Source: a virus
Lineage: Duplodnaviria > Heunggongvirae > Uroviricota > Caudoviricetes
DNA length: 64,000 nucleotides
Virus record (IMG/VR): IMGVR_UViG_2737471833_000002
Direction: 5' to 3' (one strand)
Below are positions 11,370 through 18,203 of this stretch, piece by piece. Each line of letters starts with the position of its first letter. Within the stretch, counting starts at the first letter, position 1. The position numbers and the translations under genes were made by a program. A model generated the notes under the pieces. The model made no database searches and was not told the origin of the DNA. It worked only from the letters and a program-made list of their open reading frames with translations.

Positions 11370-11846
11370 TCATTTTCCTCGTTTAATGCATCCATCCATT
11401 TTGGCTTGTTGATACAACTTACTTAGCCCAGAAAGAGGGAATGTAGCAATTTTTTCATCATCAACATAAGCATCAATCATATTAGCACTTGAATCTGCTG
11501 CATCTTGCCAAAAGGCATACCACCAAGAATCTCCAACCATTGACCCAAGATTGCTAAAAGGGTATTGCTCACCATCTATAGTTAATACTATTTTATTCTT
11601 GTCAGCATTATACTCCTTTTTATTATTCGACGAACTTAGCAACAAGCCTAAACTACCTGCACTATCTGGTGAACCATACATGAATCCCATATCACATAAA
11701 AAACTTATCTTATCACCATTATGATTATGGATTGTATATTCTCTCCCCCCTCTATCTTCAATCACATTCCATTGTAGAGGATCAATTTTTGCAAATGCTC
11801 CTGCTGAAATTAACGATACAAACAATAAAAACAATCTCATATTCAT
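11370..11846 (-). CDS. secreted protein with N-terminal signal peptide
   Basis: MNMRLFLLFVSLISAGAFA|K signal-peptide-like N-terminus; AT-rich cargo. Confidence 0.5.
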   Translation of the reverse strand: MNMRLFLLFVSLISAGAFAKIDPLQWNVIEDRGGREYTIHNHNGDKISFLCDMGFMYGSPDSAGSLGLLLSSSNNKKEYNADKNKIVLTIDGEQYPFSNLGSMVGDSWWYAFWQDAADSSANMIDAYVDDEKIATFPLSGLSKLYQQAKMDGCIKRGK

Positions 11847-11868
11847 TATTTTCGCTTCTTATCTGTAA

Positions 11869-12219
11869 TTATTCTGCAATATCATTTGCCCATTGCACGG
11901 CAGCAAAATGAGTCCCCAAGCCACTCAGGAAAGCAATTACCCCCAAAACAATACTTGCTGCTGTTGATTCAAACAAAGTACCAATACTATAGCCAATAGC
12001 TCCCCATACTAAGCTAAAAACAATCATCAATGGAATTGCCAGAAATTTTATTCTTAAACTAAAAATCAGTCCAAGAAAAGAACCGCCAAAAGCCCACCAT
12101 GATTTAGATATTAAACCTATCAGTATTGACAGAATTCCTATTTCAATAAAGAGAATATTAGATTGCTCTTCATTGAATTTCGCATTTGTTACACCTTTAC
12201 GAACATGTTCAGATGACAT
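11869..12219 (-). CDS. small multi-pass inner membrane protein
   Basis: 116 aa, three or four hydrophobic helices; strong RBS AGGAGA; first gene of the AT-rich cassette. Confidence 0.5.
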   Translation of the reverse strand: MSSEHVRKGVTNAKFNEEQSNILFIEIGILSILIGLISKSWWAFGGSFLGLIFSLRIKFLAIPLMIVFSLVWGAIGYSIGTLFESTAASIVLGVIAFLSGLGTHFAAVQWANDIAE

Positions 12220-14964: not shown

Positions 14965-15810
14965 ATGCTGGCTAAAGTCACTTTCCTGAGCTGTATAACG
15001 ATGAGCGATTTTACTTTTTCTGGCTATGAATTGGCCTGCTTTGTAACACACTCCGGTCTATCTCGTAGCGCCGGGCATATCCTGTCGCAATGTGCAAATC
15101 TAGCGGCAACAACCAGTGAATACTTCATTCACAAGCCTCACCGCCTGATCGCGGCAGAAACTGGTTATAGCCAATCAACCGTCGTTCGTGCATTCCGTGA
15201 AGCTGTAAACAAAGGAATTCTGTCTGTAGAGATTGTTATCGGCGATCACCATGAACGTCGCGCTAACCTGTACCGGTTTACACCATCCTTTTTGGCCTTC
15301 GCACAACAAGCCAAAAATGCGCTGATTGAAAGCAAATTAAAGATCTCTTCAGCGGCAACCAAGGTTAAAGCTGTTCTCGCTAAGACATTGGCTTTATTTA
15401 ATTTTTTATCCACACCCCCATGTCAAAATGATACCCCCTCCCCCTGTCAGGATGACGTGGCAATAAAGAATAAGAAGTCACAAGTTAAAAAAACAAAAAG
15501 ATCAGTTTCCGGCGGTGCCGGAACGACCAGACTCAAAAAATTGACTTCATGGATCGCTGAGGCAAAAGCAAAGGCTGACAATCTGCGGTTATCCAAAAAA
15601 CGCGCTCAAAAACATGAGTTCAAGCAGAAAGTAGAGGCGGCAGCGCGGAAATATGCTTACCTGAAGGACAAGCGTTCTCCTGATATTGGCGGGATATCAA
15701 ACTTCGATAATCTGCCACATTGCATGACGGTAAACGAAGCTCTTAATGCGGTTTTAGCCAAAAATAAAGATAACGAACAATGGGGTATACCGGCAGGATT
15801 CAGAGGGTAA
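14965..15810 (+). CDS. repL: RepL-like lytic replication protein
   Basis: 281 aa, HTH-like N-terminal region, Lys-rich C-terminus; position directly after kilA. Confidence 0.45.
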   Translation: MLAKVTFLSCITMSDFTFSGYELACFVTHSGLSRSAGHILSQCANLAATTSEYFIHKPHRLIAAETGYSQSTVVRAFREAVNKGILSVEIVIGDHHERRANLYRFTPSFLAFAQQAKNALIESKLKISSAATKVKAVLAKTLALFNFLSTPPCQNDTPSPCQDDVAIKNKKSQVKKTKRSVSGGAGTTRLKKLTSWIAEAKAKADNLRLSKKRAQKHEFKQKVEAAARKYAYLKDKRSPDIGGISNFDNLPHCMTVNEALNAVLAKNKDNEQWGIPAGFRG

Positions 15811-15813
15811 TGA

Positions 15814-15830
15814 ATTGCTCTAATTATAAC
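15814..15830 (+). promoter_or_regulatory. weak C1-operator-like site
   Basis: ATTGCTCTAATTATAAC: core 11/11, overall 12/17; directly after the repL stop and upstream of the AT-rich two-gene cassette. Confidence 0.3.
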
Positions 15831-15978
15831 CATGCATACTTTCAACACCTCTAGTTTGCCATGAGGCAAACTCATAGGTGTCCTGGTAAGAGGACATAGT
15901 TGTCAAATCTGGACGTCCCTTTATTGCAATTAATAAACAACTAACGGACAATTCTACCTAACAATAAGTGGAGTTAAC

Positions 15979-16683
15979 ATGTTGAACCGAAGAACATTTA
16001 ATGTATTCTGCGATGAATCCTGTCACCTACTAAATGATCATAATAAAGTCATGGTATTGGGTGCACTTTGGTGTCCTGGCTCTATCACAAAAAAAATTGC
16101 TAGAGACATCAAGGAATTAAAATTAAAACACAATCTAAAACCTGATTTCGAAATCAAGTGGACTAAAGTATCTGCGTCCAAAGTTGAATTTTACTTAGAT
16201 GTCGTAGATTACTTCTTCAGCAACCCAGCATTGCGCTTTAGAGGTGTTGTTGTTCCTGATAAAGAGCAACTGGACCATGCTCGATTCCATCAAGATCATA
16301 ATACTTTCTATTATAAGATGTTTTTTTATGTCTTAAAAAACATAATAGAAAGTAACAACACATACAATATCTACCTAGATATAAAAGATACTTTAGGTAT
16401 TGAAAAAATTGAGAAATTAAGAGGGGTTCTTCACAATGATCGCTATGATTACAATCATGAGTCGATAAACAGAATTCAACATATACGATCTCATGAAGTG
16501 CAACAATTGCAGCTAACGGATCTTTTCATTGGTGCGTTAGGCTACGTTCATCGAGGAATGAATAGCAACGCGGGAAAAATCCAAGTCATAAACAGGATAA
16601 AATCACATACAAACAGGGAGTTACTAAAAAGCACTCTTCCAACAGAAAGTAAATTTAATATTTTCGTGTGGGAGGCTCGCTGA
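15979..16683 (+). CDS. hypothetical protein, cassette gene A (N-terminal FCDES acidic motif)
   Basis: 234 aa, RBS AAGTGGAG; roughly one-third GC by eye versus about half in the backbone; the FNVFCDESCH motif reminds me of the DUF3800-type N-terminus (memory only). Confidence 0.55.
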   Translation: MLNRRTFNVFCDESCHLLNDHNKVMVLGALWCPGSITKKIARDIKELKLKHNLKPDFEIKWTKVSASKVEFYLDVVDYFFSNPALRFRGVVVPDKEQLDHARFHQDHNTFYYKMFFYVLKNIIESNNTYNIYLDIKDTLGIEKIEKLRGVLHNDRYDYNHESINRIQHIRSHEVQQLQLTDLFIGALGYVHRGMNSNAGKIQVINRIKSHTNRELLKSTLPTESKFNIFVWEAR

Positions 16684-17147
16684 TGCTTCAAATGCCAGAT
16701 TTATTGTACTTCAATGGAAGTTGGCAAGAGTATATAGACGATGTATATGATGTTGTCAGAGAAGACATTTTAATCTCTAATATAACGTTTAAGGGTCTCC
16801 CTGTTCGATTACGTTATTCACCGGAATATGATGGGAAAGAGTTCGGATTTTGGCATTTAGTATCAGAGGGAAAAAAAGAAGAAGAACGTATACCCGATCT
16901 TGAACGGTGCAAGCGAATTCGCTGGATCGCGCATATGATAAGGAATTATAACCATTGCGATATATCATGTTGGTCTGAAAGACGAGGACCAACTGAAGAG
17001 TGGGTAATCTGGAATGAGTGTGAAAACTACGTTGTTGTGCTATCCGCACGTAGAGACTATTGGCTTCTCAAAACAGCCTATGTTGTAACCTATGACAGTA
17101 AAATCAGAACACTCAAACAAAGCAGAAAAAGAGCACTTGGGACATAA
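16683..17147 (+). CDS. hypothetical protein, cassette gene B (translationally coupled to gene A)
   Basis: ATG at 16683 overlaps the stop of gene A (TGATG) with RBS GGGAGG 8 nt upstream; track ORF begins at GTG 16668; AT-rich. Confidence 0.55.
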   Translation: MLQMPDLLYFNGSWQEYIDDVYDVVREDILISNITFKGLPVRLRYSPEYDGKEFGFWHLVSEGKKEEERIPDLERCKRIRWIAHMIRNYNHCDISCWSERRGPTEEWVIWNECENYVVVLSARRDYWLLKTAYVVTYDSKIRTLKQSRKRALGT

Positions 17148-17185
17148 AAAAGCTGAACCCGACACATATTGCTATGTATCGGGTT
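17146..17185 (-). terminator. hairpin terminator of the convergent minus-strand operon
   Basis: AACCCGACACATA-TTGC-TATGTATCGGGTT with a U-run on the minus strand. Confidence 0.4.
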
Positions 17186-17313
17186 CGATCGCTCTTTCTA
17201 CACATGGTAGATGAGTAAGGCAAATCTAACCGATCTACTTTAGCTTTTCAATAGCTAGCTATAACTTTCCGCATATATTCTTCTGATAATTCCTGGAGAG
17301 CGGTTGGGTTTTC

Positions 17314-17610
17314 TCATGCTTTTCTGCGCAGAGAAGCACACTTATTCAGCAATAATAAATGCAATTCTTTGTTATCACTAAGTATTTCTACACACCAATA
17401 TCGTAACGTGTTCACTTCAAGTGTAGCCAGCACCTTATGTCGAAAAGCCCCCTCCCCTACACATAACGATGGCTGACATTCTGCTAAGGCACATAACCAT
17501 GTATTGGCATCATAGAGAACCCAATAATGCTCATCTGAAATAGTTATGCATCCAATTATTTCGAATCTTCTTTCTATCGTCTCAGGAGAGTATGAAAAAT
17601 CAATTTCCAT
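17314..17610 (-). CDS. hypothetical protein (98 aa)
   Basis: ORF with ATG start, last gene of the head/tail late operon. Confidence 0.35.
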   Translation of the reverse strand: MEIDFSYSPETIERRFEIIGCITISDEHYWVLYDANTWLCALAECQPSLCVGEGAFRHKVLATLEVNTLRYWCVEILSDNKELHLLLLNKCASLRRKA

Positions 17611-17693
17611 AACATGCTCAAAATCTATCTATACCGGCATAATTTAAGCACAAAAAAGCTCCCGAAGGAGCTTTAAAATACAAGGGATGACTC

Positions 17694-18203
17694 TTAATCC
17701 CACTCAATCCAGTTGTAAACGATACGAAGTGACGGGCGCACAGCGGCAGTCACATCTTCGGTACTAAAGTCGATTGCATCACTGTAGATTTTGCAGTCCA
17801 ACATTTCAATTGTTGTAGCAGCTTTTGTCACAGCGTTAACCCCGGAAGATTTGGATTCAGGGGTCGCAGCCATCGTGATATCAACATAGTCCTTCGCCGC
17901 AATGCGATCTTTAATGAACTGAAGAATATCGCCTTCGATAGTCTCCACGCACTGGACCTGGATTTCCCCAGAGTTTCGAATTGGACCGTGCTGGTTGAAC
18001 TTCACACCATTCGGACCATAGTCCTCCACATCCTCGCGGGTCATTTCAGGAATTTGCGACGTACGAACCAGTACGCTGATATCTTCATGGCCTGCAAAAG
18101 TGAGCTGGAATTCAGAAGATACCAGTCGTTCGCCTTTGGCCGCGTTGGCAGTATAGCGGCCCTTAATAAATTTACGGTTTCCCTTAGTGTTATTGTGCCC
18201 CAT
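17694..18203 (-). CDS. virion structural protein (possible tail tube)
   Basis: 169 aa, size and position near the sheath gene. Confidence 0.4.
   Translation of the reverse strand: MGHNNTKGNRKFIKGRYTANAAKGERLVSSEFQLTFAGHEDISVLVRTSQIPEMTREDVEDYGPNGVKFNQHGPIRNSGEIQVQCVETIEGDILQFIKDRIAAKDYVDITMAATPESKSSGVNAVTKAATTIEMLDCKIYSDAIDFSTEDVTAAVRPSLRIVYNWIEWD

Follow-up and report, generated by a model that had tools for sequence, protein, structure and literature searches.

What is the AT-rich pair of genes at positions 15814-17185 of the window, i.e. of the 64,000-nucleotide stretch of viral DNA analysed here: a part of the viral backbone or exchangeable cargo, and with which function? A first reading made from the letters of the DNA alone (below, the sequence-only reading) had regarded the pair as a candidate defence or addiction module and had named, as the alternative, the rlfA and rlfB genes that follow repL in phage P1. 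This alternative is correct: In a megablast search, the whole 1372 bases are 99.0% identical to rapA/rapB of P7 and 98.4% identical to rlfA/rlfB of P1, and the order repL - operator - rlfA - rlfB - pmgF - bplB matches that of the P1 rlfA/rlfB locus. The pair is native to P1 and P7, where it is called rlfA/rlfB and rapA/rapB, respectively, and the window is a P1/P7-like phage-plasmid: the genes, their position, the operator and the predicted promoter are the same, with no material difference. A 100% identical pair is found in many E. coli plasmids. In the annotated surroundings, kilA and repL are located upstream, and pmgF, bplB, pmgG, 21 and 22 are encoded on the opposite strand. The locus has the following features:

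15814..15830, plus strand: weak C1 repressor operator Orlf/Op55, annotated in P1 and P7, with the core ATTGCTCTAAT
15831..15978, plus strand: leader/intergenic region with the predicted sigma-70 promoter PrlfA and an 8-bp hairpin at about 15853-15872
15979..16683, plus strand: rlfA (rapA), 234 aa, ATG start, DUF3800 protein, predicted RNase HII-like metal-dependent nuclease
16670..16675, plus strand: Shine-Dalgarno sequence GGGAGG for rlfB, within the 3' end of rlfA, 7 nt ahead of the ATG
16683..17147, plus strand: rlfB (rapB), 154 aa, no Pfam family, PADLOC match to PDC-M04B (4.1e-52)
17155..17186, minus strand: terminator-like hairpin of 14 pairs that separates the converging genes rlfB and pmgF; its T-run belongs to the minus strand
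17314..17610, minus strand: pmgF, a co-variable neighbour in the swappable segment, outside the conserved rlfAB module
17655..17674, minus strand: terminator-like hairpin past bplB; here the variable cassette ends on its right side, and other P1-like plasmids are similar again from 17652 on

The annotation of P1 and P7, according to which the two genes are 'possibly associated with lytic replication', is derived from their position only. RlfB (16683-17147; database entries P0002, P0007, P0008 and NC_005856.1) is labelled 'oxidoreductase' in many NCBI records and 'replication protein' in RefSeq for P1/P7 and in PHROG 16230. Our searches gave no backing for either name, and the PHROG name is unsupported beyond the P1/P7 annotation.

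The coordinates of the open reading frames bear out the tight organization described in the sequence-only reading, i.e. two coupled genes of 234 and about 154 amino acids with a TGATG overlap and the ribosome-binding site GGGAGG: rlfB starts with the ATG at 16683, in the frame of an open reading frame that extends from 16668 to 17147, which gives 154 amino acids, and the TGA of rlfA (16681-16683) and the ATG of rlfB (16683-16685) have one base in common. The GC content is 0.349 for rlfA, 0.391 for rlfB and 0.366 for the pair as compared to 0.468 for the window, and only 2.8% of equal-sized windows have a GC content as low as the pair. The GC3 value of rlfAB is 0.34 versus 0.43-0.49 in repL and kilA. 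The direction of the bias had thus been recognized (0.37 versus 0.47), but the estimate of one third versus one half was slightly overstated.

Although native to P1 and P7, rlfAB is dispensable and swappable cargo between repL and the bplB late operon. This conclusion is based on the phenotype of the genes, on their distribution and on the replacement and published variability of the locus. In P1, rlfA, rlfB and pmgF are non-essential as judged by CRISPRi whereas bplB and pmgG are essential (PMC10695390). Among the 507 plasmids in PLSDB that carry this repL (coverage 80% or more), only 99 (about 20%) have rlfAB. With the region from repL to bplB as the query, the similarity in most relatives ends at 15824, just after the operator core, and returns at 17652; the slot is occupied by an 81-aa open reading frame and hokD, by an Ail/Lom gene, or by other open reading frames. 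The rlfAB region has been published as the low-GC 'variable region 5' of P1-like phage-plasmids (PMC9603915), and deletion or replacement of rlfA-rlfB-pmgF has been described in two earlier papers, one of which is the same study (PMC9603915). A conserved backbone pair with typical composition, the outcome that the sequence-only reading had set against its own proposal, is therefore not what we find: the GC content is low, the region is variable, and four fifths of the plasmids with the same repL do without the pair. Among complete E. coli genomes, rlfAB is present in 121 of 5426, nearly always on plasmids, and in 50,697 phage records RlfA occurs only in P1-like phages, in one Bifidobacterium prophage and in one metagenomic phage.

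In a spread sample of relatives, the 81-aa open reading frame with hokD was the commonest alternative cassette at the repL-bplB slot; further cassettes consist of the 81-aa and a 198-aa open reading frame, or of Ail/Lom and a 198-aa open reading frame. The records with alternative cassettes are the plasmids NZ_AP027471.1, NZ_CP033848.1 and NZ_CP021729.1 (L119-L121), in which the slot corresponds to window positions 15825-17651. In the hok-type records (L119, L120) the left breakpoint is located exactly past the 11-nt C1-operator core, and the Ail/Lom record (L121) has no junction there. In some P1-like plasmids (NZ_CP045829.1, i.e. L122, as well as L104 and L105) rlfB is shortened to about 80-90 codons while rlfA is intact, and one of these truncations adjoins an IS600-associated rearrangement. 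Truncated rlfA variants exist as well (P0038, P0108), and since truncated forms of both genes occur, biased decay of rlfB is uninformative as a sign of toxicity. The window contains a second low-GC block (about 0.34) at 10261-12219 with three minus-strand open reading frames encoding a 355-aa protein, a 158-aa protein with a signal-peptide-like start and a hydrophobic protein of 116 aa. This is the position of simCBA in P1 and of upf50.0-50.5 in P7, another published variable cargo slot.

The sequence-only reading had noticed a weak C1-operator-like site upstream of the pair, and indeed, the 11 nt at 15814-15824 agree letter for letter with the C1-operator core ATTGCTCTAAT, which occurs seven times in the window versus 0.03 times expected. 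The same operator is annotated in P1 and P7, where the names Orlf, Op55 and Op(rap) are used for this site ahead of rlfA and the annotators take it to control the pair; the full 17-mer at 15814 is a poor match with more than three mismatches. For the predicted promoter PrlfA, we carried the positions over from the P1 annotation by alignment, in which the leader is gap-free versus both P1 and P7: the -35 region TTGCAA is at 15924-15929 and the -10 region GACAAT at 15947-15952. A promoter consensus scan did not flag PrlfA. Since some 100 bp separate the operator from the predicted promoter further downstream, control of rlfAB by C1 is putative. The leader (15811-15985) has a fold z-score of -2.6, with 3 of 200 shuffles being equally stable, is near-identical in P1 and P7, and contains the 8-bp hairpin AGUUUGCC-AUGA-GGCAAACU. 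As most homologous pairs elsewhere are almost leaderless, the leader lies outside the conserved rlfAB module.

On the downstream side, a hairpin is present as had been proposed, but not in the orientation of a terminator for rlfAB: because its T-run is on the minus strand, the hairpin at 17155-17186 is best understood as ending the pmgF transcript, which runs leftward, and it is possibly bidirectional. Likewise, the idea of a self-contained, insert-like unit holds for the swappable segment, but not with the limits 15814-17185; in the relatives, the unit is wider, extends from about 15825 to 17651 and includes pmgF. We ruled out pmgF as a third component of the module since its homologues are found only beside P1-like copies of the pair. 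Residues 3-67 of PmgF (98 aa) are 45% identical to the N-terminus of the 198-aa protein (L120:1625-2221) that holds the same position in other P1-like plasmids. With the match limited to these residues, the pmgF gene of P1 and P7 seems to be a short allele that has diverged and moves together with the rlfAB cassette. The label 'morphogenetic' derives from its position.

The N-terminal FNVFCDESCH motif of the first gene product had been associated with DUF3800 proteins, and it does fall within a match of RlfA to the Pfam family DUF3800 (PF12686) that covers profile positions 1-148 of 149 with 54.2 bits (cut-off 21; E 3.5e-14). RlfA carries the N-terminal DE motif (D12-E13) and the C-terminal QxxD motif (Q178-L-T-D181), both of which have been described for DUF3800 (PMC7736814); an RNase H2-like assignment has been published for the family as well. 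No variation is seen at D12, E13, D134, D137, Q178 and D181 across 37 sequences with identities down to 52%. In its structure model, RlfA has an RNase H fold, and the carboxylates are located on strand 1, at the end of the strand 127-134 and on the helix 175-191; judged by the order of these elements, they would occupy the places of the catalytic residues of a type 2 RNase H. At the sequence level, RlfA matched none of the RNase HII/H2A families of Pfam and NCBIfam, and a profile search of the PDB gave chance matches only. RlfA has 5467 homologues at E <= 0.001, and the identity stays at 50-55% across many phyla. Such conservation, at about 50% identity or more, is unusual for mobile cargo. 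The DE motif is flanked by the invariant residues C15, H16 and C32 and by C11, which at least 90% of the sequences of the A2 alignment retain; it is tempting to speculate that C11, C15, H16 and C32 may form a metal or redox site. To our knowledge, such Cys/His residues are not expected in RNase HII-type enzymes.

For RlfB, in which no motif could be placed by eye, the searches agree: neither RlfB itself nor 145 members of its family, searched singly, matched a Pfam family, and there was no match in NCBIfam or the PDB profile search. A profile search with RlfB retrieved 1780 cluster representatives, nearly all of which are stand-alone proteins of 150-190 aa. In 147 cluster representatives H58 is present in 100% and R75 in 99%, and R69, R75, R78, F56, W57, W81 and W97 are each kept in more than 90%. 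The structure model has a pLDDT of 92. Its best structural matches are RNases of the colicin D/CdiA/RelE type, a weak fold resemblance with low scores, and Foldseek gave no match in the PDB at E <= 0.001. Based on this model and on the conserved residues, an RNase-type active site in RlfB is plausible but not established.

Outside P1, the two genes are found together in every locus surveyed. In all 80 genomic loci identified with RlfA, the next gene downstream, on the same strand, encodes an RlfB homologue (frameshifted in two cases), and in all 31 viral loci identified with RlfB, RlfA is immediately upstream. Stop and start codons overlap in 76 of 95 homologous pairs, mostly by 4 nt or 1 nt. 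RlfB diverges faster than RlfA (mean pairwise identities of 0.38 and 0.56, respectively), and the two proteins are co-inherited: their distance matrices are correlated with a Mantel r of 0.53, a value that none of 999 permutations reached. The GC content of the pair is below that of the flanks in 57 of 65 loci. Taken together, rlfAB is a strictly coupled, horizontally mobile two-gene module. About a quarter of the loci lie inside type I restriction-modification (R-M) operons: for the 72 loci with called neighbours, a type I specificity subunit is encoded immediately upstream in 18 and a type I restriction subunit immediately downstream in nine. Other neighbours are type III and IIG enzymes, GmrSD, KwaB and AIPR, and homologues are also embedded in defence islands and at prophage ends. 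In Enterobacter ludwigii, the pair is located at the end of a lambdoid prophage, adjoining the integrase, and in the Bifidobacterium prophage Bbif-1 it is part of the lysogeny region. The latter prophage (GQ141189.1, L124) has an unannotated rlfB homologue (about 5700-6208, E 1.3e-30) directly after the gene for the 'RlfA phagic protein'. An Algoriphagus locus has the order hsdMS - reverse transcriptase - A - B - hsdR - x - pAgo. In record L006 (Algoriphagus pacificus, 8470-9978 and 15557-17617) and in L007, a 502-aa reverse transcriptase is encoded immediately upstream of the rlfA homologue inside the type I R-M operon, and pAgo (Piwi) two genes downstream. This layout is reminiscent of the association of retrons with DUF3800; it is uncommon among the 72 neighbourhoods, only loci of the Algoriphagus type have a reverse transcriptase upstream, and no reverse transcriptase family ranks among the 25 commonest families of upstream neighbours.

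What might such a module do? Both proteins are full-length matches to the two components of the PADLOC system PDC-M04 (7.8e-96 for A and 4.1e-52 for B), and they are encoded adjacent to each other, overlapping and in the same A-to-B order. The PDC systems are candidates that were found by their embedding in BREX, DISARM or R-M systems, and most of them, PDC-M04 included, are unvalidated predictions (Payne et al. 2024 preprint). With the PDC-M04 matches and the context of R-M operons, defence islands and prophage ends, the candidate-defence part of the sequence-only reading gains support that is real but indirect. We lean towards the idea that rlfAB is a mobile two-nuclease conflict module that acts in phage exclusion or abortive infection rather than in the replication of P1 DNA, and we give this idea slightly better than an even chance. 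From the folds, the conserved residues and the genomic context, we infer the catalytic activity, the complex, the trigger, the target and the phenotype as follows: RlfA would recognise or cut an RNA-DNA hybrid or a structured nucleic acid that arises during infection. RlfB would be the small partner and, coupled to RlfA, would serve as an RNase-like effector or as a regulator; it may be an RNase of the colicin D/RelE type that needs no metal. As a complex, the two proteins might cleave nucleic acid, in the case of RlfB probably RNA, and this cleavage would halt the invader or the infected cell. The more far-reaching proposal, i.e. an anti-phage or abortive-infection system with a new mechanism that combines an RNase H2-like DUF3800 enzyme with an unrecognised His/Arg RNase-like partner, is tentative, and we would rather bet against it. 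The main caveat to the defence reading is the C1 operator: since C1 may silence rlfAB in lysogens, a role in which the prophage protects its host is less obvious, and if such silencing takes place, the function of the pair would fall in lytic growth. Our literature search found no defence test of rlfAB, DUF3800 or PDC-M04.

The two-gene layout with translational coupling, the structural resemblance of RlfB to the RNase toxins of toxin-antitoxin and colicin systems, and hokD, a type I toxin gene, in the cassette that most often takes the place of rlfAB all bring plasmid addiction to mind. In this case, RlfB would be a toxin checked by RlfA, and the pair would kill P1-free segregants and stabilise the plasmid prophage. 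The truncations of rlfB next to an intact rlfA would fit as well, but they are matched by the variants with a truncated rlfA. Moreover, RlfA is a 234-aa enzyme-like protein with intact residues of the catalytic type rather than a DNA-binding antitoxin, and in Pfam it has neither an HTH nor an RHH domain as seen in type II antitoxins. The classic pattern of an acidic antitoxin and a basic toxin is absent since both proteins are mildly basic, and most homologues are chromosomal and inside R-M operons, not plasmid-borne. Finally, P1 already has the phd-doc addiction system. We therefore consider addiction unlikely.

A function in lytic replication would be in line with the location of the pair directly after repL and its origin oriL and behind a C1 operator, and with changes of the rlfAB transcripts that track those of repL upon P1vir infection of an hfq mutant. 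Based on its RNase HII-like fold, RlfA might process a transcript or R-loop at oriL in repL as an RNase H, with RlfB as a cofactor. However, neither gene is essential in the CRISPRi screen (PMC10695390), about 80% of the plasmids with the same repL lack the pair, which is low in GC and swappable, and it is almost absent from other phages. In addition, the homologues in more than 80 genomes of many phyla adjoin R-M rather than replication genes, and a replication helper appears quite improbable to us. The fold of RlfA allows yet another idea: RNA-DNA hybrids are the substrates of the RNase H fold, DUF3800 genes are linked in genomes to retrons and Cas12a2/a3, and possible control by C1 implies expression upon induction or infection, so that the pair could serve counter-defence, with an early lytic RNase H-like enzyme that destroys the RNA-DNA hybrid components of host immunity, for instance R-loops, DRT products or the msDNA of retrons. 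Few phages carry the family, however, and most of its members are chromosomal and located in host R-M operons, as is typical of defence rather than of anti-defence, which makes this the sort of explanation that we would accept only with great surprise.

If the more far-reaching proposal of a new mechanism is true, a defence system next to the lytic origin of P1 has so far escaped notice, and a first function could be assigned to the DUF3800 fold, which is also found with type VII retrons, with Cas12a2/a3 loci and with eleven orphan RNA motifs. DUF3800 proteins recur beside retrons, Cas12a2/a3 and orphan structured RNAs, and none of them has a known biochemical function. For this problem, P1 in E. 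coli is perhaps the most tractable setting: the genes are non-essential, the slot is naturally swapped, and plasmids with and without the pair are available. A positive phage challenge would validate PDC-M04, give a role to two 'replication-linked' genes of P1 and correct the database names 'replication protein' and 'oxidoreductase' of RlfB; if no effect were found, rlfAB would be ordinary uncharacterised cargo. The genes rlfA and rlfB of P1, their low-GC variable region and the PADLOC entry PDC-M04 were already known. What our work adds is the explicit assignment of P1 rlfAB to PDC-M04, the finding that A is strictly followed by a coupled B across phyla, numbers for the embedding in R-M operons, and fold-level assignments with candidate catalytic residues.

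How, then, does rlfAB compare to known systems? As compared to RNase HII and RNase H2A, RlfA has the additional invariant residues C15, H16 and C32 and an obligate small partner. RlfB differs from the BECR-type RNases colicin D, CdiA-CT and RelE/ParE by an extra N-terminal region, and it is not accompanied by a small immunity or antitoxin gene. With the DUF3800 partners of type VII retrons and the TPR-DUF3800 proteins of Cas12a2/Cas12a3 loci, RlfA shares DUF3800, the RNase H2-like fold and the DE and QxxD motifs. In those systems, however, there is a reverse transcriptase, an ncRNA, a TPR domain or a CRISPR array, whereas the obligate partner in rlfAB is RlfB: the window contains neither an adjacent reverse transcriptase with an ncRNA nor a TPR fusion by cas12a. 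Nor is there support for an RNA partner of the kinds known from DUF3800 motifs, since an E-value scan of 15300-17700 against Rfam gave only hits at chance level and no DUF3800 RNA motif, and a scan of 20 homologous loci at the gathering threshold gave only a group II intron. The anticodon nuclease PrrC, whose gene is nearly always found within a type I R-M system (Payne et al. 2024 preprint) such as EcoprrI, has in common with rlfAB an accessory function of the RNase type nested in a type I R-M operon. This likeness is one of context only: PrrC is a single ATPase-nuclease protein, whereas rlfAB consists of two genes with unrelated folds. With the candidate system PDC-M04, finally, rlfAB shares both components as well as homologues embedded in R-M operons, but here the pair is located in a cargo slot of a phage-plasmid behind a C1 operator and not within an R-M operon.
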